Shown in pieces: positions 1-25,865 of a stretch of 64,000 nucleotides of DNA. The number at the start of each line of letters is the position of its first letter. Within the stretch, counting starts at the first letter, position 1. The DNA is from Minisyncoccota bacterium (GTDB lineage Bacteria > Patescibacteriota > Minisyncoccia > Phycocordibacterales > Phycocordibacteraceae), in contig JAGORR010000001.1 in assembly GCA_018062765.1 (NCBI GenBank), positions 78,638 through 142,637 on the forward strand, given 5' to 3'. Made by a program: the position numbers and the translations under genes. Below the pieces are notes generated by a model. It ran no database searches. It saw only the letters and a list, made by a program, of their open reading frames with translations, and was not told the DNA's origin.

Positions 1-424
1 TTTCTGCAGCAAGGTACGTGAATAGATTCCCGCTCGCACGCATCGCATATCGCACCTCGAGGTTCGAAAGCTGATCAGATGTCTCGAGGCTCGTCGTTGC
101 TGTGTCTGTCCGGCGCAATGCAACCGCTCCTTCGGCAACTGGCCCAGGAGTGATTTTCACGAGGCGGGGAGCAACATCCGTAGCGGTACCTCCCTCTCCA
201 GCGTCTTCGCCCCATCCGATTGTCCCCTCTTCAGGGTCGTCCCCTCCCCAGTCATCAACACCGCCACCGCCACCGGTTTCACCATCCCCTACTGGCTCGA
301 ACGGATTCGTGACGCCAGGTTCTGCAACGAGGCCGTCGTCGCCAGGTACTAGGTAGAAATAGAGCGCGACAGCGATCCCAACGAGGACGATGACGACGGC
401 GAGTATGGGAAGAAATTTACGCAT
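1..424 (-). CDS. hypothetical membrane-anchored protein, N-terminal part only (gene runs off window start)
   Basis: ATG at 424-422. Manual translation MRKFLPILAVVIVLVGIAVALYFYLVPGDDG... stays open down to position 2. One N-terminal TM helix, then a Gly/Asp/Glu-rich linker. Starts 4 nt after the stop of the upstream gene (428). Absent from the ORF track because it has no in-window stop. Confidence 0.5.
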   Translation of the reverse strand, partial: MRKFLPILAVVIVLVGIAVALYFYLVPGDDGLVAEPGVTNPFEPVGDGETGGGGGVDDWGGDDPEEGTIGWGEDAGEGGTATDVAPRLVKITPGPVAEGAVALRRTDTATTSLETSDQLSNLEVRYAMRASGNLFTYLAAE

Positions 425-427
425 AGG

Positions 428-1447
428 CTATTGGTCTCGGGACGAACGGCACCACTTATCGTCTTCGAAGTAGTTGCAGATCCGTGTGCGCTCTGGAGGA
501 AGAGGATTGAGGTCCATGTCGAGCGCTGAGTCGTGTCCTCCGCCTTGGCAGGAATCGTCTATCCCGTAAGCAAAAAGCGTACTCGGGCAAAGGCCGAATT
601 CGGCAAAGCCGCCGCAGAAGTCTTGCTGCTTTTCCTCGCTCAAGCCGACTTTCGCGTATCCGTACGAGGAGAGCTTACTGCACTCGGAAATGAGCGTCGC
701 ATTCTTTTGGCTATCAGTAACGTTGGATACTCGTATCGTCGGATTATTGTCCTGATAGAAGAATCCGTCGAAATCCATGTAGAGGCCGAAACCGGTCTCG
801 AGCCTGCACACGGCGAGTACCCCGTTTGCAACTACGTGGTGGTCGAACTCGTAATCGCCTTCGGAACATCGCTGGCTCCGGAACTCCTCGAGTTTCGCCG
901 AGAGGCTCGCATCGTCGGATGCAGGGAAGAGTTTCGCTCGTACGTAAACGCCATTAGGAATCAAATCTATCCCCTCAGGAGGAACGGGCGGGCCTTCATC
1001 TGTGCGATCGGAAAAATCAGGCTGCAGCTCCTCAAGACTCCCTTCGCATTCCGCGTTTCCAGTAAGACTCAGCGAGAGAATGCACGGGTTGATGATATTG
1101 AAGACGATGACTGGGGACAGGACCAATACGAGTCCCATGATGGCTACCGTAATGAGGTGGCGCGCCTGGCTCTTTTCCGTGAAGCTGTCCGTAAGCATCC
1201 ACAGAATGCCGCCGCGTACTATCTGCAGCACCGCAAGCACCACCGCAATGCCTATGACGAGCGTGTAGACCGTATTAAGGAACATTGGCAGATTGTCCTG
1301 CTCTTCGGCAAGCGCGCCGAACGGCCCGTCCTTCTCGGTAAGTAGAACGAAATCACCAGCTGCATCCTGTGCGGACGCCGCAAGAGGCAGCATGAAGGCG
1401 CCAAGGGCGAGGAGTGCGCGCGAAAGCATCTTCATAAGGTATCTCAT
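428..1447 (-). CDS. secreted/membrane Cys-rich hypothetical protein
   Basis: 339-aa ORF with a signal-like N-terminus (LLALGAFMLPLAASAQ), internal hydrophobic helices and a Cys-rich C-terminal half. ATGA-type overlap with the upstream gene at 1444-1447. No family recognised. Confidence 0.6.
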   Translation of the reverse strand: MRYLMKMLSRALLALGAFMLPLAASAQDAAGDFVLLTEKDGPFGALAEEQDNLPMFLNTVYTLVIGIAVVLAVLQIVRGGILWMLTDSFTEKSQARHLITVAIMGLVLVLSPVIVFNIINPCILSLSLTGNAECEGSLEELQPDFSDRTDEGPPVPPEGIDLIPNGVYVRAKLFPASDDASLSAKLEEFRSQRCSEGDYEFDHHVVANGVLAVCRLETGFGLYMDFDGFFYQDNNPTIRVSNVTDSQKNATLISECSKLSSYGYAKVGLSEEKQQDFCGGFAEFGLCPSTLFAYGIDDSCQGGGHDSALDMDLNPLPPERTRICNYFEDDKWCRSSRDQ

Positions 1448-2469
1448 AGGCCGAAGAATCCTGAATCAGGACTTGAGCCGTACCGGATACTCGCCTTCGC
1501 GTCGGCACTGTAGTATTCTCCCGCCTGCCGCGCATTTACCGAAAGTGCAGCTACGCCAGCCTCGCTCCCCGTCGTGCGCACGGTAATAGAGTCCTCCTGA
1601 CCGACTTCACTCGACCCCAACTTCCAGGTAAGCGTTGGACGACTCGAAAAAAAGTATGGAACGACCCGGAATGCTTCTTCGGTCTCTTTTAGGTCGTATG
1701 TGCCAGTAACTGCGCGCAAGAAACGAGGGCCTTCAAGTGGTCCGTCCTTATAGATGCGCACCAAGGGCTCGGTTGGCGCGATGCGCACGCTCGCTTCCCC
1801 GACGATAGCGCCGTCCCGACTCGAAACGGTCAGTGATACGCTCGCGTCACGGAACAGGACGGGAGCTGTTGCGGTGAGTACCGATTTCCCGAGCCCTGAA
1901 TCCGCGGTGAGGATGCGCCCGCCGGACTTCCAGGTATAGATAAGATCAGAGGATGCGATACGGGACCCGGGTGACGTCCGCAAGTCCGCAAGTGCAACGA
2001 CGCGCACCCGGCCCTCAGGAGCGACGAGCGCTCCACCCTGATAGAACGCGTGGGACGTGGAGATTGCGTCTATAACTAAAGAAACATCGGCGGGTCGTAT
2101 GGTGAGTTCCTCCGTGTAGACGCCGTCGGGCGCCGTCACCGTTACCTTCACTGGTACGCTCGTACCTATTGCGCCGATAGGAATCTGGTAGCTTTCCCGA
2201 CCGGAACCGCGACCGACCTCCTTCCCCGCCGCGACAACTACCACCGTGCTGCCCGAAAGATCGACTAACGTACTTTGTGGTGTGAGCGTAACGGTCTCGT
2301 ATGGGCGCGGGTAGCGCGGCGAGAGGGTTACGGTAAGCGGATCGACGCCGCTCATCGATTGCGAGGCAGCGAAAACCGGCACGAGCAGGATGAGGAGTGT
2401 GAGAAACCCTCGTATCATCGAGATAAGTATACCGTAGGCGTCAGTAGTTACGCTGCTTGCTGCGCCCAT
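1444..2469 (-). CDS. N-terminally anchored hypothetical protein (beta-rich)
   Basis: 341-aa ORF with a hydrophobic anchor (FLTLLILLVPVFAASQS) and a Thr/Val/Ser-rich body. Overlaps both neighbours. No family recognised. Confidence 0.6.
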   Translation of the reverse strand: MGAASSVTTDAYGILISMIRGFLTLLILLVPVFAASQSMSGVDPLTVTLSPRYPRPYETVTLTPQSTLVDLSGSTVVVVAAGKEVGRGSGRESYQIPIGAIGTSVPVKVTVTAPDGVYTEELTIRPADVSLVIDAISTSHAFYQGGALVAPEGRVRVVALADLRTSPGSRIASSDLIYTWKSGGRILTADSGLGKSVLTATAPVLFRDASVSLTVSSRDGAIVGEASVRIAPTEPLVRIYKDGPLEGPRFLRAVTGTYDLKETEEAFRVVPYFFSSRPTLTWKLGSSEVGQEDSITVRTTGSEAGVAALSVNARQAGEYYSADAKASIRYGSSPDSGFFGL

Positions 2470-3023
2470 TCCTCGTTATCGTTTGCCGCCGCATCCCTCG
2501 CTATGCTCGCCTCTTCGGCAGCAAGCCACCTGTCATATTTCTTACGGGCTTCCCTGTCGTCGCTACGGACGGTCTGTGTTATCGCCCAAATGCTCATTGT
2601 CGACCATGGTAATACGTTCACATACGGAAGGAATTCGAGAATGCTATTGCCAGCCATGATGAATATGCGTGCCCCCATCTTATCGAGGAAGCCGACACCT
2701 ATAAGACGGAACCATGCGATAAAGACCAGTATCGATATAGCGCTTAGAGCCGCACCGATAATCCAGCCAAGCATTGCGATGCCCACTCCCACTCCCACCG
2801 AGTAGGACGCCACTAACGAGAGACTTGAGACGTAGCAGGCGACGTCTCCAGCCCACACACTCCCTGCCCAACCCTCGACCCAATATTTCGCAAAATAACA
2901 GATCAGTAGGGGCGCAAACACTACCATCAGGGCCCCTATAGTCTGAAGCATTTCAAACGTTAAAGCTACCGCGATCATCCGTATCTGACGGCCGCGCGGC
3001 ATCTTTGGTTCTGGTTTATTCAT
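2448..3023 (-). CDS. small polytopic membrane protein, T4SS-associated by position
   Basis: 191 aa with about four hydrophobic helices. 4-nt overlap with the stop of the VirB4-like gene (3020-3023). Confidence 0.6.
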   Translation of the reverse strand: MNKPEPKMPRGRQIRMIAVALTFEMLQTIGALMVVFAPLLICYFAKYWVEGWAGSVWAGDVACYVSSLSLVASYSVGVGVGIAMLGWIIGAALSAISILVFIAWFRLIGVGFLDKMGARIFIMAGNSILEFLPYVNVLPWSTMSIWAITQTVRSDDREARKKYDRWLAAEEASIARDAAANDNEEWAQQAA

Positions 3024-4852
3024 GGACGGCGGTCCTGGTCCGCTTCAGCAGCGAGCCGTTGTTTTTCCCGTTTGATTGAAAGAATCTGAGAAGGGTCCGA
3101 GGTGATTATCTGGTCCTCCGTGTATGAGGCGACAACCTTGATGGCAACATGCTTGAGGCCAGCAAAGAATAGCCCGTCCCCCACCCCAGCCTCTAGTAGG
3201 AGGAATTTTTCCTGGTCAGTAAGGTTGAATGTTTGCTTCAGGAGATCAATCGTCGTTGGCGACTGCTTCAAAAGAAGCTGCATGGAAGAGTTTGTGAGTA
3301 TCGGGCGCCCATATGGTGAGCGGAGGAAGTCCTCGACGTCCTGGGTAACGGTTGCGAGCCCTAAATAGTATTTACGACCGCGCTTGGCGAGACTGTAGAG
3401 GAATGACGCGGTGTCATCCGATTTCATCATCCACCAAGCCTCGTCGATGACGAGAAGACGCTTTCTCAGCTCGCGCCGTACGGCGTTCCAGATGTAGTGC
3501 GTAATGATATACATCGCAACCGGTTTCAGTTCATCCTCCATATCACGCACCGAGAAGACGATGAACTGCTTATTGATATCGATATTCGTCGGCTGATTCA
3601 GGAAGCCGGCCCAAGTACCCTTTGTGTATTTCGACAGACGCGTCACGAGGGATTCGCTTCCCTCCATCCCGGAGAGTACTGATTCGAAATCCGATAGGAG
3701 CGGTGCGTCCATCCCAGTGAAGTCGCGATTCCCGGTGATGTCCTTAAGGGCATAGGTTTCCGTAATAGCGCGATCGATGATGGCGTCCTCCTCCGGCGTG
3801 AGTCCCCCGAGCATGATGCGGAAGAGACCGACGAGGTTGATGATGACCGAACGCAATATGTCGTTTGGCTCCTCCCCTTCCCGCACGGGCGGAAGATCGA
3901 AAGGATTGATGTGATGCTCCGAGGAAAGCGAGATGTTGAAAAGGCGGCCGCCTGTTGCCTCCGCAAGGTATTCGTACTCGCGCTCAGGGTCGATGACGAT
4001 GACTTCTGTATCGAACATAAGCGAACGGAGAATTTCGAGCTTCACTGCGTAGGATTTTCCGGAGCCCGACTTCGCGAATACGACCGAGTTGTAGTTCTCT
4101 AGAGAGAATCGGTCGAAGAGGACGAGGGATGAGTTGTGGCGGTTGATGCCGTAGAGGATGCCCTTATCGGAGGTGAGGTCGTAGGAGACGAACGGGAATA
4201 GAGAAGAGAGAGGTGAGGTATTGAGTTTCGAATGGACGCCTAGCTCGTCGAGCTCCAGGGGAAGCGTTGAGCGGAAGCCCTGCTCCTGCTGGAATATCGC
4301 AGGCTTTGTGTATACGAGTTTAGCGTCGAGGATACCTCGTAATTTTCCTTCAAGATTATCGAGCTCGTCCTTACTGTCTGCGTAAATGGTTAGGTACAGT
4401 CCGACCTCAAACAAGCGCTCCTGTGCCTGCTGCAGCTGGTCCCGTAGACGCTCCAGGTCCTGGTATGAGGTATCGAGCATTGGGTCGCGCACAAGACCTT
4501 TTTGCGCGCGGTCGGCCTGCTGGCTCTCCACTTCCGCGACTTTCTTCTGGAACTGGCGAAGGATCTGGCCCGTCTCTATGGGGTGGATGAAGATGCCGAC
4601 ATCGAATACTTGGTCCAAATTAATAACCGGGGAAAACCAGTCGTCGGACAAAAACCGCGGATACGAGATGGTGTAAAAGGAGCGCGCAAACTTGGCGCCA
4701 AGCTCCAATTCCCTGCCGGTGACCTTGAGTGCTGCTGGCGCGATAGTGTCCGCCAGGTCTAAGGCTCCCTCTGCATAGATATCCTTAGGAAGCACAGACG
4801 CGATGTCTGGCGCCTCTTCTTTCTTACGGTTAAGGAAATCGAGGAGTGCCAT
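3020..4852 (-). CDS. virB4: VirB4/TrsE-type type IV secretion ATPase
   Basis: Walker A FAKSGSGKSYAV and Walker B RLLVIDEAWWMM, with the layout of Gram-positive VirB4-type conjugation ATPases. Start set at ATG 4852 (MALLDFLNRK), because the 14 extra codons of the tracked ORF (to 4894) lie inside a heptamer-repeat spacer. Confidence 0.85.
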   Translation of the reverse strand: MALLDFLNRKKEEAPDIASVLPKDIYAEGALDLADTIAPAALKVTGRELELGAKFARSFYTISYPRFLSDDWFSPVINLDQVFDVGIFIHPIETGQILRQFQKKVAEVESQQADRAQKGLVRDPMLDTSYQDLERLRDQLQQAQERLFEVGLYLTIYADSKDELDNLEGKLRGILDAKLVYTKPAIFQQEQGFRSTLPLELDELGVHSKLNTSPLSSLFPFVSYDLTSDKGILYGINRHNSSLVLFDRFSLENYNSVVFAKSGSGKSYAVKLEILRSLMFDTEVIVIDPEREYEYLAEATGGRLFNISLSSEHHINPFDLPPVREGEEPNDILRSVIINLVGLFRIMLGGLTPEEDAIIDRAITETYALKDITGNRDFTGMDAPLLSDFESVLSGMEGSESLVTRLSKYTKGTWAGFLNQPTNIDINKQFIVFSVRDMEDELKPVAMYIITHYIWNAVRRELRKRLLVIDEAWWMMKSDDTASFLYSLAKRGRKYYLGLATVTQDVEDFLRSPYGRPILTNSSMQLLLKQSPTTIDLLKQTFNLTDQEKFLLLEAGVGDGLFFAGLKHVAIKVVASYTEDQIITSDPSQILSIKREKQRLAAEADQDRRP

Positions 4853-4860
4853 ACTAGAAG

Positions 4861-4944
4861 TAGCGTACAGGTGACAGCGTGCAGCGTACAGCAAAAGCGG
4901 TGCAGGAGTGTTCAGTCTGGACGCTAGCCGCTAGACGCTTCATA
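4861..4944. repeat. 7-nt periodic tract filling the spacer upstream of virB4-like gene
   Basis: Read in register: TAGCGTA CAGGTGA CAGCGTG CAGCGTA CAGCAAA AGCGGTG CAGGAGT GTTCAGT CTGGACG CTAGCCG CTAGACG CTTCATA. Confidence 0.8.
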
Positions 4945-5577
4945 TCATTTTGTAAGCCTTATCGGGCTATCGAGCTCGCCGATGTTGAATGAGCGGTAGA
5001 GAAGCTCGATGATTTCCTCAGTGCCTAGGGGTACTGCGCGAATACCGGCCGAGTTTATGGCGCCTGCAGCCAGGGACATGCGCTGCTCGAGCTGGATGCG
5101 ATGCTCAGCGAATGCGTCGTTCCCTTCCCCGCCAGACCCGGATGACGGAGTGCGCTGGAGGAACGCGAGCGCACTCTTCACTTCCGAACCCGAGCCAGGT
5201 GCCAAAGGAACGACGATGTAGAATGTCTTCGTCATGATGTTTGCTTGATCAGCGAACGCGCGGACGAATTCCATGTATTCGCGTACCTGTATCTTCATGA
5301 GCTCGGTTTCCTGCTTATCTGTGCGCTCCTGAAGGAGTGCTAGGTACGGCCGGATATCCATGCGGCGGGAGTGCACAACAAGCTCCACGGAAAAATCGAG
5401 CGAATTGAGGAAGGTCTGGAATCCGCCGATGACCGCCCGCTGCTCGTCGTCGGATTTCAAGGAGAAGTTCACTGATGAGCACATGAGTATGCCCCGATAC
5501 GTGCCGTCCTTAAGGATGATGACCCCATTACGGACCTCCTTTACTGGAACAAACGACTGAGATGCTTTAGGCGCCAT
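4945..5577 (-). CDS. hypothetical protein, T4SS-associated
   Basis: 210 aa with an 11-nt overlap with the PrgI-like gene. The N-terminal pattern VPVKEVRNGVIILKDGTYRGILMCSSVNFSLKSDDEQ recalls the pre-ATPase region of Gram-positive VirB4 proteins (recollection, not a search). Confidence 0.6.
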   Translation of the reverse strand: MAPKASQSFVPVKEVRNGVIILKDGTYRGILMCSSVNFSLKSDDEQRAVIGGFQTFLNSLDFSVELVVHSRRMDIRPYLALLQERTDKQETELMKIQVREYMEFVRAFADQANIMTKTFYIVVPLAPGSGSEVKSALAFLQRTPSSGSGGEGNDAFAEHRIQLEQRMSLAAGAINSAGIRAVPLGTEEIIELLYRSFNIGELDSPIRLTK

Positions 5578-5986
5578 GGTTTTCTTCCTGCGTGCGGTCC
5601 TTTATATCGAGGGACCATGCTAGGTCCCGAATCTTCGAGGACGACAGCCCGAGCTTCTGGCGGGCTTCTTCTGGGGCGACGACAGCTTTGGGTGCTTCTT
5701 GCGCCTTATCCTCCTTACGCCATACGTAGAGTTTCCCGCCAAACAGGTACGACACCTGTGCCTCGACAATCTCAACGAACGGCTTGTTGTTGACGCGATA
5801 GAACGCGAGGGCGCCAGAGAGTGCGCCGACGGGAAGTGCCACGATGAGGAACCCAATCATGGGAAGGTAGGCAAACGCGATGACGCAGATACCGATGCCT
5901 CCGGCAAGGTATATGAACTGCTTCAGCGTGAATGGTCCAAATATCTTCCCTTCCACTTCGAGAAACTGCGGTACTTGGTACTCCAT
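5567..5986 (-). CDS. PrgI-like (VirB3-like) T4SS membrane protein
   Basis: 139 aa: MEYQVPQFLEVEGKIFGPFTLKQFIYL followed by two adjacent TM helices. This is the PrgI-family pattern, in the prgI-like position upstream of VirB4. Confidence 0.65.
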   Translation of the reverse strand: MEYQVPQFLEVEGKIFGPFTLKQFIYLAGGIGICVIAFAYLPMIGFLIVALPVGALSGALAFYRVNNKPFVEIVEAQVSYLFGGKLYVWRKEDKAQEAPKAVVAPEEARQKLGLSSSKIRDLAWSLDIKDRTQEENHGA

Positions 5987-6026
5987 CGCTCTATAGTATA
6001 CCGCCCGAGCGCCGAGTTTTGCGTGG

Positions 6027-6635
6027 TTATTGTGACGTACCCTCGTCTATGGGTTCACGATACGGGTCGCGAGCATAATTTTTTGGTACAGGAGCCGGAA
6101 GTGGCGCGATAGACGCAGGTGTTGTGACTTCACGCTCTGTTCGAGGGAGGCGGGGCTCGAAGACTGCTGGAGGTGTCACCGGCTCAGGGCGCGGCGCGGG
6201 AGGAGCAACAGGAGCAGAAGTTATCACAGGTGCAAGCGGCGCGGCTGGAGCGATTGGAGCAGTGGGTGGAGGAGTGGTGCCAAGAGGTGCAGGCACGTCG
6301 GTGAGTGGCGCGCGCGCAGGCTTCCCGGCCTCGCTCCGCATCTTCTCGTGGAGGGGCTTGAATATCGCGTCATTAAGTTCCTTGGCGATGAGAGAGGCTT
6401 TCAGATTAGATATGCCCATCTGCTCCATCTCCTGTATGAGCTGTGCAGGATTGATGAATCCGGACAACATAAGTCCAATGGACTCATCCAAGTCGCCTAC
6501 GACGTCTATGTGTAACTGGTACTTTGCACCTATGCGGCGCACTGCTGGCCCTAATTCACCGCTCGCGAGGTACTCACGAACAGAAAGAGGAAGACCGCGA
6601 TATGCCCGCAAAAGTTCTTCGTGTGGAATCTTCAT
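6027..6635 (-). CDS. hypothetical protein with Pro/Ala-rich C-terminus
   Basis: 202 aa with a helical N-terminal domain followed by PPPTAPIAPAAPLAPV... No family recognised. Confidence 0.55.
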   Translation of the reverse strand: MKIPHEELLRAYRGLPLSVREYLASGELGPAVRRIGAKYQLHIDVVGDLDESIGLMLSGFINPAQLIQEMEQMGISNLKASLIAKELNDAIFKPLHEKMRSEAGKPARAPLTDVPAPLGTTPPPTAPIAPAAPLAPVITSAPVAPPAPRPEPVTPPAVFEPRLPRTEREVTTPASIAPLPAPVPKNYARDPYREPIDEGTSQ

Positions 6636-6641
6636 AGAGAG

Positions 6642-8933
6642 CTATAGTCCTGCAAAATCTTTCGGAAGCCCGAACAGACCGCGATCGAAATCATTACTCG
6701 TAAGATAATTATTGATACCTTCTATTTGCTTGGCGGAAAGTACGCCCGCAGCCTTACCTCGTCGAAGTTCAGCGATAACTTCCGCAGGGTCTGAGAACTT
6801 ACCCTCCGCCATACCTCGTTGCAAGTCGACTTGCGTGAAAGAATGCACGACAGCAGGTCGGGTATAGTCTTTAGCGCTTAGTTTGACCTTTGCCTTAGGC
6901 CCAAGACCGCTCGCCTGAGTCCTGATATTCACCTGTGATGCGGCTGATCCGTCGTCTTTCTCTATTAAGACGCGTAATTTACCAAAGTCCGATGAGTCCT
7001 TAACTGCGCGGCGTTGGTCATTGGTCAAGGCCTCACTCTTTTCAAGTGCCTCCAACTGTTCGTCGGAGAATTGGCCAGCAGCAAGCGCGTCTTCGAATGT
7101 CGCCGCGTTAAGCTTCGCAAACTCTGCCATATCCTTTGATGACCAGCGTTGTACCTCCTTCTTATCGTTTGTACCAATGGCCGCCACGAGTTTTTGGAAT
7201 CGCCCGCCTGCAACTTCGTCCTTAACGCTCTGATCGACCTTGTCGGTCTTCTGAATGTCGATGAACCGTTCAGTGCTGAGGTATTTCGCCGCCTCCTGTT
7301 TATCTGCATTTTTGAGTCTTTTGACGTACTCGAACGTGTCTCCCTGGTTCAGGCTCTGCAGGGTCTTCGAATACTCTTTCTCGGCTAGCATCCGCTTTGC
7401 ATCATCAGGCGCATCTTTTATGCTCTTAAGCTGCGTGCCAAGAGTGCTGAACGTGTGATCGCGATGAACTTCATGCGCGCGATGGTCACGCGCATGTTTC
7501 TCGTCATCCAGAGAAACACCAGCTACTTTTATTTTCTCGCGCTTATCGAGCGCGGATTGGATATTGGCGTCCGTCGTCGCAAGTATCTTGCTTCCTCTAA
7601 ACGCGGCGCCTATGCCAAGGCCATTATATGCCTTATCTGCCGCCCACATTCCAGCCTTCGCGCCATACCTAAGCCCCGTATTCCCTATCGCACGAGAAGG
7701 TTTTGATATTGGAGAGAGCGCTGCGCCGGTAAGACGTCGGCTCATGCCGATGGAGAAGCTCGCGCCGACCGCACCCATCTGTTTGGCGACAATGATGGAC
7801 GCCATAAGCATTCCCATGGAGATAACGAAGCCGAGTATCATTCGGGTCGTATTGGCCCAACCGGTGCCGCTGACGAGCGCGCTGAAATCGCGACTCTGTC
7901 CGATGATGAGCTGCGGCGAGGTCATCAGCGTCACACTGATGAGGAGGAACAGGAGGACAATAGGAGCAGTCGCGCTTTGGGCGATGAGCATGTGCCACCA
8001 CTGCTTCGCGCGCCCCTCTAGGGATGGTATGACCAGTCCAACGAAGCCGAGAGGGGACAGGATCATGAGGAATATGAGTACGAGGAAGCGCGCGATGAGC
8101 ATAAACGCGAGCGCAAGCATTACGAACGTAGCGACGATGAACAGGAGCGAGCCTAGTATGAGCGCAGCGAACCAGTTGTTCTCCAGCACCGTATTCTTAA
8201 GCTGCCCCGTCTGAAGCGTAGTTGCATCATAGAAATTCTGAAGTCCGACCATCTCCATAATGGCGTTCGAGACGCCCTCATTAGATGGCGACCAGCTTTC
8301 CCCCGGATCCGCGCCGAGCGCTTGCCTGCCCTCTCCGGGCTTCACCATGACGGAGTAGAACTGATAGGCGAACACGTTGCCAACGTCGATGATGGCGCGT
8401 GCAGCGAAGAGGCTGAAATTCACGGTAACGGCGACCAGGATGAGCTTCACGAGCATCTTCTTCGCGTTGTAACTCTGTACGTCGAGTATCGTCGCGACGC
8501 CGATAGCGACGAATCCGAATATGAGCGCAATGTTACCAAGATCGCGTAGCACCCTCCATGCATCGAGTATGCCGGGCATGCTATTCACGAAATCCCCCAT
8601 CTTAACGACTGTGTAGTAGACGGACGCGTTAAGCATCACGCCGGCGACTCCGGCGAGGTACGCGAACAGGGATAGCATCTTATACCCTATGGGTCCGTAG
8701 ATATCGTCTCCGGTCGTATGACTTCCAAAATTAGCGTTCGCGTCAGGGGTCCCTGCTTGCGGGGCAGCAGGAGGAGGACGATCCGGAAGCGTCAGATCAG
8801 GGGGCGAGTCCGGGGTCACTTCAGGAGGTGGAGGTGTCTGGGCAAATGCGAGACTAGGAAGCAGGAGCGAAAGCGAAAGCAGCAGGATGATACCTGCAGC
8901 CAGCCATGTCCTACCTGATACTCGGGAAGCCAT
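6642..8933 (-). CDS. large polytopic membrane protein, VirB6/TrbL-like by topology and position
   Basis: 763 aa: signal-like N-terminus, Pro-rich linker, roughly 7-9 hydrophobic helices (residues ~85-400) and a long charged soluble C-terminus. The family assignment is inference. Confidence 0.55.
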   Translation of the reverse strand: MASRVSGRTWLAAGIILLLSLSLLLPSLAFAQTPPPPEVTPDSPPDLTLPDRPPPAAPQAGTPDANANFGSHTTGDDIYGPIGYKMLSLFAYLAGVAGVMLNASVYYTVVKMGDFVNSMPGILDAWRVLRDLGNIALIFGFVAIGVATILDVQSYNAKKMLVKLILVAVTVNFSLFAARAIIDVGNVFAYQFYSVMVKPGEGRQALGADPGESWSPSNEGVSNAIMEMVGLQNFYDATTLQTGQLKNTVLENNWFAALILGSLLFIVATFVMLALAFMLIARFLVLIFLMILSPLGFVGLVIPSLEGRAKQWWHMLIAQSATAPIVLLFLLISVTLMTSPQLIIGQSRDFSALVSGTGWANTTRMILGFVISMGMLMASIIVAKQMGAVGASFSIGMSRRLTGAALSPISKPSRAIGNTGLRYGAKAGMWAADKAYNGLGIGAAFRGSKILATTDANIQSALDKREKIKVAGVSLDDEKHARDHRAHEVHRDHTFSTLGTQLKSIKDAPDDAKRMLAEKEYSKTLQSLNQGDTFEYVKRLKNADKQEAAKYLSTERFIDIQKTDKVDQSVKDEVAGGRFQKLVAAIGTNDKKEVQRWSSKDMAEFAKLNAATFEDALAAGQFSDEQLEALEKSEALTNDQRRAVKDSSDFGKLRVLIEKDDGSAASQVNIRTQASGLGPKAKVKLSAKDYTRPAVVHSFTQVDLQRGMAEGKFSDPAEVIAELRRGKAAGVLSAKQIEGINNYLTSNDFDRGLFGLPKDFAGL

Positions 8934-8938
8934 ATCGG

Positions 8939-10390
8939 TTAGCTTGTCGGGGTGCAGCGCAGGGAGGAGGTGCGCAGTTCCATATATAAGGAGGCTGGCG
9001 TGCCCTCTTCAGCTGCAAGTACCCCTGCTTCAGCAACCTCTGTGACAGAAGGGGTCGCAGGATTTGTCATGAGTGCTTGGAAGTCCTGGGCGACCGTTGC
9101 GACAGCGGTGGGATTCGCGCTCGTACGTGCCTCTAGGATTTCTGTGGTGATTGCCTGTAGCGCAGCGAGCGAGACGCCGACGCGCGCGAGTGCTGCATCC
9201 GCACGTGCTTTTGCGTCCGTTGCGCGCGCCTTCTCCTCATCCGTAGATTCATCGCAAGTAAGCGTTGACGATGCTACCGCCTCTATTTTCTGCCAATCCG
9301 TCTGATACGAAGCAAGGAGGGTTACTTGTCCCTGGATACCGCTTACAAGAAGCTCGTCGACAGATCCCCCGATAGGCGTTGTGGGAGGGGTGACCGGTGT
9401 CGGCGTCCCCGGTCTGTCTATATATCCTGAGCCGCCAGAGGATCGTGAGCCAATAGAAGAAAGTCCCTGAAGCGCCTGGCTTACAAGTTGGCTAACGAGC
9501 GCGTTCACGATCTCGTTTATCTCGTCAGCGACCTGGAGGCGCTGCTGCCCACCTGCCAAGGTCTCATTGAGCTGTTTTTCGATGACGGAACCTGGCGTCT
9601 CGATGGGGGCGTCGGCGCAGAATTCTTCCCCACCCAGATTGACCGCCGGCACAGGCGCGTTAATGCGGCCATCAGCGCCTGTTGTTGTCTGTCGGTCCCT
9701 GCACTCGCCGCGCCAAGACAGAAATCCGTTACCCCATCCGAGCTCCGTTATCCGCTTGTTAAGAGACGCTTCGATGCGGCGATTGAGCTCTTCTTTGGCA
9801 TTTAGATATGCGCCATGTGGGTTGTTTGCGCGATCTCCCGTGAGTGCGAACCACCCGTCCCAGCCGCCTTCGCTAAACCGACCGCGAGTGAACTCAAGAT
9901 CGTTCTCCACAGTGTCGCGAAGGGTGTACAGCTGCTCACGAAGGAACGCGTCGCCATTAGTCGAAAGGTAGTATCCGTACGCAACCGCCTCGACGGTACC
10001 CGAGAGCGGCGTGTCCATCATCTGATCGGCGAGCTGCCCGATGAATTCTGCGGCTACCGCGTCAGCGACCCCGCGCAGGTTCTGATTAAGGTCCTGGACG
10101 AAAGCCGGAGAGCCCTCGAAACCAGAGTTTATCCAATTGACGACGCTCCGCGACATCGACTCAAGGACGGTGTTCGCAAGCTGCCAAGCGACGCCGTCGA
10201 GGACCTGGTCGATATTGAGTTCTGCAGCATTTGTACCGAGAATGGCGTTTGTCGTTGCAAGGACTGCTTTATCGAGAACGAGCTGAACACCAAATTGTGC
10301 TTCAGCGCGTTGCGGTATTGCAAAGAGCGGCAGGATGAGCGCCAGCGTGAGCGCGGATGCGGTAGAACGATACAGGAGTGTACGCATCAT
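8939..10390 (-). CDS. secreted hypothetical protein
   Basis: 483 aa with a clear signal peptide (ALILPLFAIPQRAEAQ). 4-nt overlap with the upstream gene. No family recognised. Confidence 0.6.
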   Translation of the reverse strand: MMRTLLYRSTASALTLALILPLFAIPQRAEAQFGVQLVLDKAVLATTNAILGTNAAELNIDQVLDGVAWQLANTVLESMSRSVVNWINSGFEGSPAFVQDLNQNLRGVADAVAAEFIGQLADQMMDTPLSGTVEAVAYGYYLSTNGDAFLREQLYTLRDTVENDLEFTRGRFSEGGWDGWFALTGDRANNPHGAYLNAKEELNRRIEASLNKRITELGWGNGFLSWRGECRDRQTTTGADGRINAPVPAVNLGGEEFCADAPIETPGSVIEKQLNETLAGGQQRLQVADEINEIVNALVSQLVSQALQGLSSIGSRSSGGSGYIDRPGTPTPVTPPTTPIGGSVDELLVSGIQGQVTLLASYQTDWQKIEAVASSTLTCDESTDEEKARATDAKARADAALARVGVSLAALQAITTEILEARTSANPTAVATVAQDFQALMTNPATPSVTEVAEAGVLAAEEGTPASLYMELRTSSLRCTPTS

Positions 10391-11364
10391 AGGCTGGTTG
10401 CAGAAAGGAGTGCGTAGAACCCGGCGCCGGCACCCGTTCGCGCAGCACCCGTTGCGTCGTACGCTTTCTTCACGGCTTTGAAGCCATCGATCATGCTGCG
10501 CGCATCCTTCTCATAATTTCCAAACCCAATCATCGCGCGCACAGGATCATCAGTGAGTGAAGCCATGTCCCCAATCGTCGCTCCGAGCCGTGCGATTGCG
10601 TTCGTAAGTGACTGATGTGCGCTCGTAAGTGCTATTGGCGCAGCGACCCCTCGGAGGCCTTCTGCTATCGCAACGTAATGGTCTCCTATCCGCTTTACCT
10701 GTGCGAGCGCATTCGTATCGCTCTTGAGCACTGCGTCGCTGAAATACGTAAGCTCGCTTTCCGGGAGCGAGAGCGCGTTCTTGGCAAATGCCTGCTCAGC
10801 CCCTGCAAGGTATGAGCTAGGGGTCGCTCCCTCGCTCGCTACGAAGTCGGCAACGACGTATGCGTCATCACGCGTCGCTTCGCGGCGGATTTCGTCAACC
10901 GCGCTTACGACGAACGAGCGCAGTGCCTCAGCGGTGAGTTTCTCCCCTCCCCCGGTAGTGACGTACGTCTCGAAGAACGTGAGCGCGAATTTCTCGGTGA
11001 GGGAACCTGGTGCCGGAGTTACCCCTGGCATGCTTGCGATGATGTCGCTTCCTATAGTGCCTTCGGGCGCCTCAATCGTGGGGCGCACGAGGCCCTGGGC
11101 AAGCGCCTCGCTATCCTTGATGTCGCTCCGTACCGAAGTAGCGTCCTCCGGGTCCATCCCATACAGGAGCTCCTGCCAGTCTGGAACGCCATCGGCATCC
11201 GTATCCTTCGCGGCGTATTCTTTAAGCACCTCCTCGGTCTCCTCTGCAGATAGCGTTGGCGTTGGTGGAGCGCCGTTTTGTATGTAGTAGGCGCCTCCGA
11301 TGAGCACAATCGCGATGAGCGATGCTCCTCCTACTATCCAGTGCGTTCGTGTGACAGCAATCAC
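10387..11364 (-). CDS. membrane-anchored hypothetical protein with Ca-binding-like DxDxDG motif
   Basis: 325 aa with an N-terminal TM helix, then DTDADGVPDWQELLYGMDPED (thrombospondin-type-3-like). It is the first gene of the block. Confidence 0.55.
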   Translation of the reverse strand: MIAVTRTHWIVGGASLIAIVLIGGAYYIQNGAPPTPTLSAEETEEVLKEYAAKDTDADGVPDWQELLYGMDPEDATSVRSDIKDSEALAQGLVRPTIEAPEGTIGSDIIASMPGVTPAPGSLTEKFALTFFETYVTTGGGEKLTAEALRSFVVSAVDEIRREATRDDAYVVADFVASEGATPSSYLAGAEQAFAKNALSLPESELTYFSDAVLKSDTNALAQVKRIGDHYVAIAEGLRGVAAPIALTSAHQSLTNAIARLGATIGDMASLTDDPVRAMIGFGNYEKDARSMIDGFKAVKKAYDATGAARTGAGAGFYALLSATSL

Positions 11365-12222: not shown

Positions 12223-14157
12223 TTAGTGTATCTGCGGCAGACCATCATGTTCGCCAATCTCCGCGACAGTGAGCGAAGGATCGATTTCCGATAGGAATTG
12301 CGACGGCTCCGAAAGGAAGTCCGTTCCATAGATACGGCGTACATGTGCGAGCGTGAGGATCAGGGTCTTTCGTGCGCGCGTCATGGCAACGTAGAAGAGG
12401 CGGCGCTCCTCCTCCTCATCGCGATCGTTATCATCGCCACCCTCATGCGGAAACAATCCCTGCTCGAGCCCTGAGACGTAGACGGTATCGAATTCGAGTC
12501 CCTTAGCCGCGTGCACCGTCATCAGAGTGACGCCGTTCTTCTTTACTTCCTCGCGCGGCCTATCGATCTCGTCCTGGTCGCCTGAGAGCGCCGCGTCTGC
12601 GAGGAATGCGCATATCCCTTCTTCGCCTGGGGTTGCGTCGAACCGGCTTGCGAAGGTCGCAAGCTCCTTCGCGTTCTCAATGCGCTCTTCGCCTTCCTCC
12701 CCGCCTTTCTCTAAGGAACTCATGAGACCGCTTTTCTCGATGACGAGCTTTACGAAAGCAGAGGGAGCAAGTTCTTTTGACGCCCTGTGGAGCGTTTCGA
12801 TGAGGGCATCAAACGCAGCGATTTTCGTGCGATCCGCGGCACGTAACTCCGCAGTTTTTCCGGCCATGATCTTCCCTACCGTAGTCTTTCCGATGCCGCG
12901 TGCAGGCGCCTGCATAGCGCGGAGCCGGTCAGACTCGCGTGTGGGGTCAAGCGCGGCGCGCATCCACGCGACCGCGTCTTTAATCTCCTTGCGGTCGAAG
13001 AAGCGGATGCCCAATAGTCGGTACGGTACGCCGTAGCGCAGGAACGCTTCCTCTAGGGCACGTGACTGGAAATTCGTCCGATATAGAACGGCGATGCTTT
13101 CCGGCTCATCCCCGCGTAGGACGCGTTTCTTCGTGTCGGATGCTATCCACGCAGCCTCGCCCTCAGCGTTCGCGGCGAGGTGTATGTGTATCGGCTCTCC
13201 GTCGTCGTTCGTCGTAACCGAACGCTTCTCCTTGCGATTCCGGTTCTTCTCGATGACCTGGTTTGCAGCTGCAACGATGGTTCCCGTCGAGCGGTAGTTT
13301 TCTTCAAGGATGACGGTTTTCGCGTCGGGATACGTGCGATCAAATTCAAGGAGGTTCTCGATAGTAGCGCCACGCCAGGTGTAGATGGTCTGATCGATAT
13401 CGCCGACCACAAACAGGTTGCGGTGCTTGCCCGAAAGCAGGTTCGCGAGCCTTCCCTGGAGTTCGTTGGTGTCCTGGTACTCGTCGATATGCACGTGCGA
13501 GAAGCGCGACTGCATCGCGTCGAGCGCTTCAGGGTGTTCTTCTAGGAGGCGAAGTGGAAGCAGAATCAGGTCATCGAAATCGAGCGCCTTTGCTTCCTTC
13601 AAGGAGCGCTCGTACTTAAGCCATGCTTCCGCGACGATGCGCGTCCGGAAGCTTTCGCGTGCATGGCGCGCATGGAACTCATCCGAACGCATTCCTGCCC
13701 CCTTTGCTTTACTGATACGCCCGAGAACGGTGCGCGGCGGCACCTCCTTGGGGTCAACATCAAGCGCCTTCAAGGCCTCCTTTATCGCACGTTCGGAATC
13801 ATCGCGATCGAATATAGAAAAGTAGCGGGGAACGCCGATAAAGCGCCCATGGGTCTCAAGTATCTCGCGTCCGAGTCCGTGGAAAGTCGCAATGAATGGA
13901 AGGTCTCGTCTGCGGCGGGTGTCGCCGGTCTCTCCGAGAAGCGTGGCGAGCCGTTCACGCATCTCACGGGCTGCCTTATTGGTGAATGTTACGGCGAGGA
14001 TTTTCTCAGGAGGCGTCCCTTCGCGGATGAGGTGGTAGATGCGACTCGTGAGTACCCGGGTTTTCCCTGAGCCTGCCCCTGCGAGTACCGAGATAGGGCC
14101 TTGGGTCGTAAGCACAGCCTCCTTTTGTCTTTCATTGAGGCCGTGGAGGTACTCCAT
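12223..14157 (-). CDS. pcrA: UvrD/PcrA-family ATP-dependent DNA helicase
   Basis: VLAGAGSGKTRVLT (motif I), IDEYQDTN (motif II) and TVHAAKGLEFD near the C-terminus. Confidence 0.9.
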   Translation of the reverse strand: MEYLHGLNERQKEAVLTTQGPISVLAGAGSGKTRVLTSRIYHLIREGTPPEKILAVTFTNKAAREMRERLATLLGETGDTRRRRDLPFIATFHGLGREILETHGRFIGVPRYFSIFDRDDSERAIKEALKALDVDPKEVPPRTVLGRISKAKGAGMRSDEFHARHARESFRTRIVAEAWLKYERSLKEAKALDFDDLILLPLRLLEEHPEALDAMQSRFSHVHIDEYQDTNELQGRLANLLSGKHRNLFVVGDIDQTIYTWRGATIENLLEFDRTYPDAKTVILEENYRSTGTIVAAANQVIEKNRNRKEKRSVTTNDDGEPIHIHLAANAEGEAAWIASDTKKRVLRGDEPESIAVLYRTNFQSRALEEAFLRYGVPYRLLGIRFFDRKEIKDAVAWMRAALDPTRESDRLRAMQAPARGIGKTTVGKIMAGKTAELRAADRTKIAAFDALIETLHRASKELAPSAFVKLVIEKSGLMSSLEKGGEEGEERIENAKELATFASRFDATPGEEGICAFLADAALSGDQDEIDRPREEVKKNGVTLMTVHAAKGLEFDTVYVSGLEQGLFPHEGGDDNDRDEEEERRLFYVAMTRARKTLILTLAHVRRIYGTDFLSEPSQFLSEIDPSLTVAEIGEHDGLPQIH

Positions 14158-14475: not shown

Positions 14476-15522
14476 GTGGCCGCGGTTGCCCTTAGCATCG
14501 TGGCTTTTGCCATACCTCGTGAAGTAGTCGCTTTTTGGCCGTTCGCGCCGTTCACCCGTTCTGCCGAGGCCCAAGTCCCTTTGGTCGCGCCCGATCCATC
14601 CCTCCGCCTTCTTGCGGCAGCGACGAACACTGACCCTAACCCTGAAAAGGGTGGCTGCGCGCTCCCAACCACCGAGGGTTCTGCGCTTACTGGAGCGTCA
14701 TGCCCTGATACCGCTTATATCGAGGCTGCAAACTCGGGTGGCAGTATCTCTTTGTACGAAGTCCACGAGGGCGATACGCTTTCTGATATTGCGGAGATGT
14801 TCGATGTTTCGGGGAACACCATACTTTGGGCGAATGATCTCAAGAGCTCGAAGGACATCCATCCGGGTCAGACACTGGTCATCCTTCCTGTGACCGGGAT
14901 TCGCCACAAGGTGCTTGCGGGCGAGACACTCGCGTCCCTCGCAAAAACCTACGGTGGCGACGCGGATGAGATCGCTTCGTATAATGGCCTCCACAGTGCA
15001 GAAGCCCTCATCAAGGGTTCCGTAGTCATCATTCCCGGTGGCGAAATCAAGGTCGCGGCGAAGCCAGTAGCTAAGTCCGGCGTGAAGCAGGGCGGCAGCA
15101 TCGCGTCGATAAGCGGCAAGGGTGGAGGCGCGGCGATACCTGGGTACTACGGGAATCCGGTTCCGGGCGCCATTGTCACGCAGGGCGTTCACGGATGGAA
15201 TGGCGTCGACCTCGGTGCCCCTGCGGGTACCTCCGTTTATGCGGCTGCCGGCGGTACCGTCATCATTTCGAAAGCGAATGGCGCGTGGAATGGAGGCTAC
15301 GGGAATTACGTGGTTATCGATCACGGCAACGGGACGCAGACGCTCTACTCCCACCTCTCGTCGGTTGCGCTCTCGGTTGGAAGCTCGGTCGCCAAGGGAG
15401 CTCTGGTTGGTGGCGTGGGACGCACAGGAGAAGCGACTGGCAACCATCTTCACTTTGAAGTTCGCGGCGCAAAGAATCCTCTTTCAGGCTGCGTTACCGG
15501 AAAGACCTGCTCCGCGCAGTAA
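14476..15522 (+). CDS. LysM-LysM-M23 peptidoglycan endopeptidase
   Basis: Two LysM repeats (YEVHEGDTLSDIAEMF, HKVLAGETLASLAKTY) and an M23 core (GVDLGAP, YGNYVVIDHG, GNHLHFEVR). The tracked start is GTG 14476 and the true start is uncertain. Confidence 0.85.
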   Translation: MAAVALSIVAFAIPREVVAFWPFAPFTRSAEAQVPLVAPDPSLRLLAAATNTDPNPEKGGCALPTTEGSALTGASCPDTAYIEAANSGGSISLYEVHEGDTLSDIAEMFDVSGNTILWANDLKSSKDIHPGQTLVILPVTGIRHKVLAGETLASLAKTYGGDADEIASYNGLHSAEALIKGSVVIIPGGEIKVAAKPVAKSGVKQGGSIASISGKGGGAAIPGYYGNPVPGAIVTQGVHGWNGVDLGAPAGTSVYAAAGGTVIISKANGAWNGGYGNYVVIDHGNGTQTLYSHLSSVALSVGSSVAKGALVGGVGRTGEATGNHLHFEVRGAKNPLSGCVTGKTCSAQ

Positions 15523-20652: not shown

Positions 20653-20919
20653 TTACTTCTTCAACCCGAGCTTTTTGACAATCGCGTTGTAGCGACGCTT
20701 GTCGTTTGCCTCAAGGTAGCGAAGATGCGAGCGACGATCAGCAACCATCTGAAGAAGTCCGCGACGCGAGTGTACGTCCTTATTGTTCTTCTTCAAGTGC
20801 TTCGTGAGGTCCTCGATACGACGCGTCAAAATAGCTACCTGTACGTCAGGTGAGCCTGTATCGCCTTCGTGCCGGGCGGCATTCTTCATGACTGCCGCCT
20901 TTTTCTTCGTAGTAAGCAT
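20653..20919 (-). CDS. rpsO: 30S ribosomal protein S15
   Basis: GDTGSPDVQVAILTRRIEDLTKHLKKNNKDVHSRRGLLQMVADRR. Start moved to ATG 20919. Confidence 0.9.
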   Translation of the reverse strand: MLTTKKKAAVMKNAARHEGDTGSPDVQVAILTRRIEDLTKHLKKNNKDVHSRRGLLQMVADRRSHLRYLEANDKRRYNAIVKKLGLKK

Positions 20920-21123
20920 GTGAACGTACCCTACCACATATTGACTATTCGCGCAAGGGTTATCTGGTGCGGAGTCGAGTCAAAACCGCGAACTGCTTTG
21001 TTGGGGAGGCCTCCCTGTTTTCTCCATCGTATGTATATACGACTACGAAAACCTCAGCTTCCCGCCGTGCATTTCATCGATGCTGAGCTCGCTCCGGTAA
21101 TTACAATATTTTCCGACGCTTGG

Positions 21124-21132
21124 TGGTACAAT
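21124..21132 (+). promoter_or_regulatory. extended -10 (TGgTACAAT) 7 nt upstream of recombinase ATG, possible leaderless mRNA
   Basis: TGGTACAAT at 21124-21132 and ATG at 21139. No good -35 and no SD. Confidence 0.35.
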
Positions 21133-21138
21133 TTTTTT

Positions 21139-22035
21139 ATGGACGCACAGACGATGAAGCGGCAATTCCTCGAATATATCGAAATCGAGCGCGGCCGTTC
21201 GGTGAAGACGGTTGAGAACTACGACCGCTACCTCACTCGGTACCTGACGCAGATGAAGGTAGGCCAGGTAGGAGAGATTACGGAGGAAAGTATTCGCGAG
21301 TTCCGTATGTGGCTTAACCGCCAGCCCGGGACCGGCAAGGATTCGATGAAACGCCGCACGCAGAACTACTACCTTATTGCGCTCCGCGCCTTCCTGAAGT
21401 TCCTCCGCAAGCGCGGGGTCGAAAGCTCTTCCCCGGAACGTATCGAGCTTGCAAAGCTCCCCGAACGTCATCTGGACCTCATTACCTCAGCCGAGCTCGA
21501 TAGGCTCATGAAGGCAGCCGATGGCGACTCGGAGCGCTCGCTTCGTGATAAGGCCATCCTCGAGATGCTTTTCTCTACGGGTCTTCGCGTTTCAGAGCTG
21601 TGCGCACTCGATTCCGACCTCGACCTTACCCGGGACGAGCTCTCCGTGCGCGGCAAGGGAGACAAGGTACGCGTGGTATTCCTCTCCGAAGCTGCTAAAG
21701 ACGCCGTGAAGGCGTATCTAAAGGCTCGCAAGGACATGGGCGAGGCGCTTTTCGTGAATATCGCGAAGGGTCGTGAGCGGGGCGAGCGTCTCACTCCCCG
21801 TTCTATAGAGCGCACTATGAAAACGTATGCCGCGAAGGCGGGCATCACCAAGAAGGTCACTCCCCACGTGCTCCGACACTCGTTCGCGACCGATTTACTC
21901 TCGAATGGCGCTGATATTCGTTCTGTGCAGCAGCTTTTGGGGCATGCCTCTATCAATACGACGCAGATCTATACCCACGTCACCGACTCTCATCTGCGTG
22001 AGGTCCACAAAAAGTTCCACGGGCGTACGCGCTAG
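21139..22035 (+). CDS. tyrosine recombinase, XerC/XerD family
   Basis: N-terminal SAM-like domain (FLEYIEIERGRSVKTVENYDRYL) and catalytic LRHSFATDLL ... TQIYTHV. Start at ATG 21139 rather than the tracked 20869. Confidence 0.85.
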   Translation: MDAQTMKRQFLEYIEIERGRSVKTVENYDRYLTRYLTQMKVGQVGEITEESIREFRMWLNRQPGTGKDSMKRRTQNYYLIALRAFLKFLRKRGVESSSPERIELAKLPERHLDLITSAELDRLMKAADGDSERSLRDKAILEMLFSTGLRVSELCALDSDLDLTRDELSVRGKGDKVRVVFLSEAAKDAVKAYLKARKDMGEALFVNIAKGRERGERLTPRSIERTMKTYAAKAGITKKVTPHVLRHSFATDLLSNGADIRSVQQLLGHASINTTQIYTHVTDSHLREVHKKFHGRTR

Positions 22036-25462: not shown

Positions 25463-25481
25463 AGCTAGTGTTTACCTCAGG

Positions 25482-25553: not shown

Positions 25554-25555
25554 AG

Positions 25556-25864: not shown

Positions 25865-25865
25865 T

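Follow-up and report, generated by a model that had tools for sequence, protein, structure and literature searches.

What does a block of eleven genes centered on a VirB4 ATPase do for a member of the Patescibacteria: does it move DNA between cells as part of a mobile element, or does it serve the cell that carries it? The question is raised by a 64,000-nucleotide stretch of contig JAGORR010000001.1 (positions 78,638 to 142,637 of the forward strand, assembly GCA_018062765.1, Minisyncoccota bacterium), which we call the window throughout. Its positions 1 to 11364 are filled by eleven head-to-tail genes on the minus strand, numbered here g01 to g11 from the first to the last of the putative operon, with g11 cut by the left edge of the window. 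A preliminary description, made from the letters alone, had seen in them a minimal monoderm-type type IV secretion system (T4SS), possibly used for DNA uptake or host-cell interaction rather than conjugation. We conclude that the block is almost certainly a T4SS of the Patescibacteria clade and that it is very probably non-conjugative. The fuller reading, a chromosomal, vertically inherited, non-conjugative system of the class Paceibacteria, nested in MPF_FATA and serving host contact or macromolecule exchange, is in our view likely. The locus is a typical case of a system described between 2023 and 2025 and not a discovery; what the preliminary description had treated as open, namely the type of locus, its content of TrsD, PrgI, VirB6 and VirB2 and its neighborhood of ksgA, rnpA, dnaA and dnaN, was published in 2025.

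Core components of the secretion system

The eleven genes are tightly packed, as the list of open reading frames (ORFs) bears out. The five overlaps noted earlier (1444 to 1447, 2448 to 2469, 3020 to 3023, 5567 to 5577 and 10387 to 10390) are all exact, and the other intergenic gaps measure 3 to 92 nucleotides. The impression that the products are mostly membrane or secreted proteins was backed for eight of them by a simple hydropathy scan, in which g01, g09 and g11 each had a single N-terminal transmembrane (TM) segment and g02 a signal peptide, g03 showed about eight hydrophobic segments, g05 had two TM segments and g08 three or four, and g10 combined a signal peptide with two TM segments; g04, g06 and g07 had no TM segment. 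A promoter and terminator scan of the operon was uninformative. When ten of the operon families were compared all against all with hhalign, signal peptides alone matched, with no paralogy between families.

Profile matches identify g07 as the C-terminal catalytic part of a VirB4 ATPase. It scored 371.6 bits (cutoff 325, E = 7.9e-111) over positions 184 to 733 of the NCBIfam model NF045971 (conju_CD1110) and also matched Pfam PF19044 (P-loop_TraG, E = 1.3e-25), while its match to HerA/DUF87 was partial and weaker. This settles for VirB4, rather than HerA/FtsK, a profile check that had been set beforehand, and both motifs reported earlier (Walker A GSGKSY and Walker B LLVIDEAW) are found in the protein. 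The ATG at 4852, used in public assemblies, is the more likely start than the TTG at 4894. Among the matches listed, g07 is 83 to 90% identical to at least 120 protein clusters, and every named source is Paceibacterota, Parcubacteria or Patescibacteria. The reading of a monoderm-type T4SS in a genome of the candidate phyla radiation was right at its core; an identical VirB4 is on record under the name "Candidatus Pacebacteria bacterium." Outside Patescibacteria, the best curated model for this protein is the CD1110 family of Firmicutes.

The gene just upstream, g06, had been counted as unassignable. Its product matches conju_CD1110 at positions 5 to 136, VirB4_plasma at 103 to 233 and TrsD at E = 2e-4; VirB4 N-terminal regions were matched by all 25 orthologues compared and TrsD by 23 of them, and the precomputed Pfam annotation is PF26593 (TraC-like). 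We assign g06, on these profiles, as a TrsD-like protein, that is, the predicted N-terminal domain of VirB4 detached into a gene of its own. It has an ORF to itself in 79 of the 80 related loci, and the split is therefore not a frameshift. These loci, to which all counts of related loci below refer, are the best 80 of 579 relatives from a scan of species-representative genomes, all of them Patescibacteria or unnamed metagenome-assembled genomes (MAGs); the best 80 come from Paceibacteria-type MAGs (Kaiser-, Nomura-, Campbell- and Taylorbacteria, among others).

Two further membrane components had been named in the preliminary description, and both assignments held. The product of g05, with two TM helices, reaches 31.7 bits on PF12666 PrgI (cutoff 27, E = 2.3e-7) and is assigned as a PrgI/VirB3-type protein; its gene sits two genes upstream of virB4 and was found in 76 of the 80 loci. 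The 763-aa polytopic product of g03 has a signal or TM segment and about seven TM helices followed by a hydrophilic, poorly conserved coiled-coil C-terminal region of about 380 aa. PF04610 TrbL/VirB6 was matched by 5 of 24 orthologues (best E = 1.9e-7), and the hidden Markov model (HMM) of the orthologous family matched g03 itself at E = 5e-151, so the assignment is one by transitive homology. The invariant residues of the family are confined to the TM part, and in a PDB profile search the C-terminal part matched coiled coils alone. Because the membrane part alone is conserved and a long hydrophilic tail follows it, we read g03 as a putative extended VirB6.

A pilin, which the preliminary description did not see, is encoded by g10. 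The protein consists of a signal peptide, a two-TM pilin domain (residues ~51 to 115) and a C-terminal domain rich in cysteine (10 Cys). It matched TrbC/VirB2 at E = 0.025; PF18895 T4SS_pilin was matched by 23 of 25 orthologues (best E = 3e-11) and TrbC/VirB2 by 10 of the 25, which identifies g10 as a predicted VirB2-type pilin. Conservation in the family is limited to the pilin domain. The C-terminal extension (median 151 aa, range 3 to 342) is not alignable between species, and since the number of cysteines is even in 89% of the members, it fits a hypervariable, disulfide-bonded, extracellular domain. PDB sequence-profile searches with g10, g06 and g02 gave motif-level matches, coiled coils or no match. 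With the split VirB4, the pilin, and the TSP3-repeat and three-Ig proteins described below now identified, the terms "minimal" and "eight unassignable" products proved too strong.

Conserved gene order and vertical inheritance

Gene order in the related loci was mapped in two ways, by tblastn and by an iterated HMM search of locus ORFs, and both methods agree. The order pcrA-rsmA-g01 to g11-(yidC, rnpA)-dnaA-dnaN is found in most loci with long enough flanks, in dozens of species (family counts in Table 1). The synteny comparison across Patescibacteria suggested in the preliminary description thus yields the same gene order from species to species, and because this order recurs in dozens of related genomes the arrangement is not due to chance.

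The left flank was read from contig JAGOQO010000006.1 (GCA_017991435.1; locus L001), which carries the exact g10 protein and reaches 10 kb past the window edge; the exact g10 protein is also present in a Logan assembly. Next to g11, on the opposite strand, are yidC and rnpA; these are followed by dnaA, dnaN, a class A penicillin-binding protein (PBP) gene, ruvC, a YebC-family (TACO1/YebC) gene and ruvB. On the other, upstream side, rsmA and pcrA adjoin g01, and beyond pcrA lie a divergent LysM-M23 peptidase gene, comM, the gene for S15 and other housekeeping genes before a recombinase. The operon therefore lies beside the replication origin region, between rsmA/pcrA and yidC/rnpA/dnaA/dnaN.

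Protein identity was compared in the 54 genomes with all markers, as the median identity to the window protein. VirB4 was the most conserved (75%), followed by DnaA (56%), TrsD (53%), PrgI (48%), YidC (47%) and DnaN (39%), and VirB4 identity exceeded DnaA identity in 51 of the 54 genomes. The envelope and surface proteins of the operon had medians of 26 to 40%, against 39 to 48% for DnaN, YidC, PcrA and RsmA. The recurrence of the gene order and a VirB4 more conserved than DnaA indicate that the cluster is vertically inherited and is not an integrative and conjugative element (ICE); it is a core machine under strong constraint whose exterior evolves fast.

Table 1. Positions of the operon genes and of other features within the 64,000-nucleotide window, and number of related loci in which each family was found
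Feature	Position	Strand	Length	Related loci	Predicted product or content
g01	10387-11364	minus	325 aa	42	TSP3-repeat protein; first in operon
g02	8939-10390	minus	483 aa	46	Secreted all-alpha protein
g03	6642-8933	minus	763 aa	51	Extended VirB6
g04	6027-6635	minus	202 aa	47	Soluble protein with Pro-rich linker
g05	5567-5986	minus	139 aa	76	PrgI/VirB3-type protein
g06	4945-5577	minus	210 aa	79	TrsD-like protein
g07	3020-4852 (or 4894)	minus	610 (or 624) aa		VirB4 ATPase, C-terminal catalytic part
g08	2448-3023	minus	191 aa	59	Small polytopic protein
g09	1444-2469	minus	341 aa	74	Three-Ig anchored protein
g10	428-1447	minus	339 aa	66	VirB2-type pilin
g11	1-424 (first 141 codons); in full L001:11024-12292	minus	422 aa in full	65	Anchored protein; last in operon
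rsmA/ksgA	11421 to ~12218	minus		38	Pfam RrnaAD; 56 nt from g01
pcrA/uvrD	12223-14157	minus		28	Pfam UvrD-helicase
LysM/M23 peptidase	14476-15522	plus			LysM in two stretches (E = 1.1e-19), Peptidase_M23 (E = 6.8e-29)
572-aa ORF	18183-19901	minus	572 aa		No Pfam match
Tyrosine recombinase	20869-22035				XerC/D-type; SAM_1 and Phage_integrase
Four tRNA genes	25481-30556				
Transposase	27563-28450				IS1595 family
PG_binding_1 paralogue	30985-32391	plus			Secreted protein (PG_binding_1 E = 1.7e-8)
PG_binding_1 paralogue	32513-33679	plus			Secreted protein (PG_binding_1 E = 5.4e-9)
RTX-repeat gene	42354-43331	minus	325 aa		HemolysinCabind E = 6e-37, 7 stretches
pilB and pilC	43478-46502				Type IV pilus
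comEC	55893-57371				Competence

Comparison with known type IV secretion systems

In a search of 3,035 Patescibacteria genomes, Quinonero-Coronel et al. (2025; PMC12102498) found VirB4 in 2,417, and 2,425 Patescibacteria VirB4 proteins formed a monophyletic clade nested in MPF_FATA. The same study reports that VirB4, TrsD, PrgI/VirB3, VirB6 and VirB2-like pilins are widespread in the phylum, many of them encoded near virB4, that relaxases are almost absent, that type IV coupling proteins (T4CPs) are seldom near virB4, and that dnaA, dnaN, rnpA, ksgA and rpmH are common neighbors of virB4 in Paceibacteria and Microgenomatia (PMC12102498). Our locus has in common with this clade the VirB4, the separate TrsD, PrgI/VirB3, VirB6 and a VirB2-like pilin, and likewise has no relaxase or coupling protein in cis and a chromosomal, origin-proximal position with ksgA (rsmA), rnpA, dnaA and dnaN as neighbors. 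The assembly that supplied our left flank, GCA_017991435, was not found in the supplement of that study (PMC12102498).

Functional evidence comes from Southlakia epibionticum, in which transposon sequencing found a homologous cluster and its pilins to be essential to epibiotic growth (Wang et al. 2023; PMC10633639). That locus (SEML1_0006-0019) contains an array of six divergent pilins and has peptidase and lysozyme genes right after virB4. Unlike it, the present locus has one pilin gene, whose product ends in a long, variable domain rich in cysteine, and the sole wall-hydrolase candidate of the locus is the LysM/M23 peptidase gene, which lies on the other strand 3 kb upstream of the operon and diverges from pcrA. 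The gene holds the same position in three of the related loci (L009, L010 and L057). VirB1-like proteins with M23/LysM have been reported, as has an association of VirB1 homologues with virB4 in Paceibacteria (PMC12102498), and the peptidase is a candidate cell-wall hydrolase for the T4SS, a possible VirB1 analogue. The accessory families g01, g02, g04, g08, g09 and g11 are not named in either paper (PMC12102498, PMC10633639).

The conjugative T4SSs of MPF_FATA carried by Gram-positive plasmids (TrsC-TrsD-TrsE of pGO1/pSK41, PrgH-PrgI-PrgJ of pCF10) are, like this one, monoderm systems without a VirB7/9/10 outer-membrane core, and share with it the VirB3-like PrgI, the CD1110-family VirB4 and a VirB6-like protein; the split into TrsD and VirB4 is the arrangement of the pGO1 subclass. 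Unlike them, our locus has no relaxase, T4CP (PcfC/TrsK), VirB1-type hydrolase (PrgK/TrsG) or recognizable VirB8-like PrgL, it has the VirB2-type pilin that the Gram-positive systems lack, and it is chromosomal and vertically inherited. A comparison of the family HMMs with pCF10 PrgA to PcfC gave less than 9 bits throughout, in an insensitive test in which PrgI against PrgI also failed. A further group of T4SSs, exemplified by Helicobacter ComB, archaeal Ced and Bordetella Ptl, has no T4CP and is non-conjugative: these systems are VirB4 driven, have neither relaxase nor coupling ATPase, and carry out import or Sec-dependent export. ComB and Ptl are diderm systems with VirB7 to VirB10, of which our locus has no homologues. 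The matches to Ced were far below the cutoffs (CedB, 36.1 bits against 700; CedD, 15.4 against 600) and give the locus no sequence-level membership in that group.

Accessory proteins of the operon

Apart from the core components and the pilin, the operon has six genes, which code for proteins of the envelope or surface. The first product of the operon, g01, has one N-terminal TM helix, a predicted TSP3 calcium-binding repeat (DTDADGVPDWQE) and then a domain that looks helical. The DxDxDG motif, previously noted as resembling a calcium-binding site, can now be specified as a bacterial TSP3 repeat: 20 of 25 orthologues matched PF18884 TSP3_bac (best E = 2.8e-10), and a PDB profile search with g01 matched the calcium-binding motif and nothing else. 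The family occupies the same position in all the related loci where it was found.

The secreted product of g02 has a signal peptide and an AlphaFold2 model that is all alpha (predicted local distance difference test score, 71.6). Every one of its 256 word-indexed homologues is named "hypothetical," and an exhaustive search with a threshold of E <= 1e-3 brought the family to 5947 cluster representatives (clusters at 50% identity). DUF4141 was matched by 12 of 87 family members, over the first ~35 mature residues; in Bacteroides conjugative transposons, DUF4141 genes sit between traG (VirB4) and traJ (PMC10434189). We hypothesize that g02 could be a VirB5-type minor pilus or tip protein.

Two of the smaller products gave no database match. 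The soluble protein g04, which matched nothing in Pfam or NCBIfam, has a conserved domain of ~100 aa at its N terminus, then a Pro-rich linker (16% Pro), and at its C terminus a DPYREP motif that is also conserved, and in each of its loci its gene is directly upstream of prgI. An apparent g04-PrgI fusion in one related locus (L055:950-2230, plus strand) is an artefact of an ORF that reads through a masked N-run in the public contig. The other, g08, is a small polytopic protein (3 to 4 TM) with a charged C-terminal tail, fast evolving and matching nothing in Pfam or the PDB; the iterated HMM search placed its family directly after virB4. Considered as a pilin paralogue, it had no profile similarity to the pilin family in hhalign.

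The last two anchored proteins have large ectodomains. In g09 an N-terminal TM helix is followed by three tandem immunoglobulin (Ig)-like beta-sandwich domains, and the protein is a surface or cell-wall-spanning component; it was also considered as a VirB8-like assembly factor of the NTF2 fold and rejected, in that the TM helix is present but the ectodomain consists of the three Ig-like sandwiches. In g11 an N-terminal TM helix and an acidic Gly/Asp-rich linker precede a C-terminal domain, lying beyond the window, with a conserved Cys pair. A profile search matched TolB (7mx5) at E = 0.0029, and PD40 was matched by 1 of 24 members, which gives a faint suggestion that this domain may be a TolB/PD40-like beta-propeller.

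Other features of the window

Besides the genes mentioned so far, the window encodes a CCA-adding enzyme, RNase Y, clpP, nusA, tim, pgk, recJ and others, together with pilB/pilC and comEC, so that the T4SS shares its 64 kb with type IV pilus and competence genes, and the organism therefore possesses distinct machineries for pili and for the uptake of DNA. The IS1595-family transposase gene lies among the four tRNA genes. A match of the g03 HMM to the first of two tandem paralogous genes for secreted proteins fell in a low-complexity acidic coiled coil and does not represent homology. Both paralogues have a signal peptide, a PG_binding_1 domain and an extremely acidic region, several hundred residues long, of helical repeats rich in D/E/A (DUF4398-like); the GC- and AT-skew spike at 32 to 34 kb is due to these two genes. 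The RTX-repeat gene, adjoining pilB/pilC, encodes a protein made mostly of calcium-binding nonapeptide repeats; the window showed no genes for type I secretion. Finally, the 572-aa ORF lies in a stretch of raised GC fraction (0.60) and raised GC skew (0.149), and is overlapped on the opposite strand by an ORF of 379 aa.

Function of the system and alternative explanations

In the reading that we favor, TrsD and VirB3 would hold VirB4 at the membrane, where it would power the assembly of the VirB6 channel and the polymerization of a VirB2 pilus across the wall. The anchored Ig-stack (g09), propeller-like (g11) and TSP3 (g01) proteins would aid wall crossing, and the M23/LysM peptidase encoded nearby may be what opens the wall. 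The variable head of the pilin, and possibly g02 as a tip protein, would contact the host cell. The system as a whole would then serve host attachment and macromolecule exchange in an episymbiotic lifestyle, with import of host material favored over export of effectors, a preference that is not settled. That the system forms a pilus is something toward which we lean with modest confidence.

Could the block instead be an ordinary ICE or integrated plasmid, with a relaxase, a coupling protein and an integrase just outside it and an operon that conjugates DNA? The best curated VirB4 model does belong to a family of Firmicutes conjugative elements (CD1110), and the window does hold a tyrosine recombinase and an IS1595 transposase. 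However, the recombinase, of the XerC/D type and the sole one in the window, is 9.5 kb away from the operon, with housekeeping genes (rsmA, pcrA, M23, comM and S15) between the two, and the first 10 kb past the left edge, where a search for a relaxase or integrase had been suggested, contain yidC, rnpA, dnaA, dnaN, PBP, ruvC and ruvB instead. In the ~74 kb made up of the window and these 10 kb, the Pfam annotations of the called genes include no relaxase domain, and no VirD4/TcpA-type coupling ATPase is annotated, which extends what had been noted for the window alone. The housekeeping rather than integrase/att character of the rsmA/pcrA flank was likewise confirmed: no att-like direct repeats bracket the block, and the GC content of the operon (54 to 57%) is that of the rest of the window. 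Together with an identical chromosomal position in dozens of species and a VirB4 more conserved than DnaA, this leaves a mobile element close to refuted. As there is neither relaxase nor coupling ATPase in cis, we infer that the system does not conjugate, and the non-conjugative use proposed in the preliminary description agrees with the published view (PMC12102498, PMC10633639).

The remaining alternatives concern what is moved. A dedicated DNA-uptake machine like Helicobacter ComB or archaeal Ced, importing host or environmental DNA for nucleotides or transformation, would likewise have no coupling ATPase or relaxase in cis; it would suit the Patescibacteria, which lack nucleotide synthesis and for which import of DNA or other macromolecules has been proposed (PMC12102498), and the window contains comEC, recJ and genes of type IV pili. 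The VirB4 match to CedB is weak and partial (36 bits), but it and the CedD match span the P-loop region only, far under the cutoff, and no ComB7-10 or CedA-like proteins were recognized in the locus. In Southlakia, deletion of comEC ends competence and spares growth, so that comEC is dispensable and the T4SS essential (2025 review, PMC12857230, citing Wang 2023), and what makes the T4SS essential is therefore something other than transformation through ComEC. We consider a dedicated DNA-uptake system unlikely, with the qualification that it overlaps our preferred explanation, whose substrate stays open. Export of protein effectors or toxins that manipulate or lyse the host, with substrates delivered by Sec as in Bordetella Ptl, or a pure adhesion pilus, also has precedents in T4CP-less exporters (Ptl and Brucella VirB; PMC12102498), and Wang et al. 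suggested that the Southlakia system may export proteins (PMC10633639). The operon encodes many proteins with Sec signals, and the hypervariable, presumably surface-exposed pilin domain suggests host-specific recognition. Yet the locus yielded no candidate effector, no chaperone and no secretion signal, and all operon products are conserved, structural-looking proteins present in every related genome, so that we regard this option, too, as rather doubtful.

Several observations weigh against the reading of a non-conjugative, host-directed T4SS. Two of its components fall short when taken individually: g03 of the window has no Pfam match of its own, and g10 reaches 25.2 bits on PF18895, just below the cutoff of 26.6 (E = 1.7e-5). 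The VirB2 domain of g10 bears a C-terminal extension of ~220 aa, which puts its ability to polymerize in question. No VirB8-like or VirB1-like protein was found within the operon; none of its products matched VirB8 or PrgL in Pfam, NCBIfam or the insensitive pCF10 HMM comparison. That the genes form a single transcript is suggested by their spacing alone. Most Patescibacteria genomes encode VirD4 homologues, as a rule well away from virB4 (PMC12102498), and a relaxase or coupling ATPase could lie elsewhere in the ~0.64-Mb genome. The proposed function, moreover, is an extrapolation from one species of Saccharimonadia.

Significance for Paceibacteria

A large part of bacterial diversity belongs to the Patescibacteria, whose members live attached to other microbes. 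To our knowledge, theirs is the sole T4SS shown to be essential to the growth of its owner, in one species of Saccharimonadia. The locus described here is no new kind of system; it is a clean and complete Paceibacteria example, whose eleven genes keep a fixed place next to the replication origin. Its remaining interest lies in the uncharacterized accessory families and the decorated pilin, about half of the locus proteins having no known role. The new details are the variable, disulfide-rich C terminus predicted for the pilin, the three-Ig protein, the TSP3-repeat protein, and the secreted helical family with a DUF4141-like N terminus. As experimental handles, the locus offers the variable-head pilin, the three-Ig anchored protein, and the very large unannotated secreted family of g02.

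Patescibacteria T4SSs are the sole monoderm T4SSs with VirB2 pilins (PMC12857230). A speculative extension of our reading, which we advance with low confidence, is that the six accessory families form an undescribed, Paceibacteria-specific extracellular module, in which a disulfide-bonded pilin head would decorate the pilus and set host specificity, g02 would be a VirB5-type tip, and g09 and g11 would make a wall-spanning stalk replacing VirB8, VirB9 and VirB10. If this were true, these bacteria would possess a pilus-bearing T4SS architecture unique among monoderms, with which they would draw macromolecules from their hosts.

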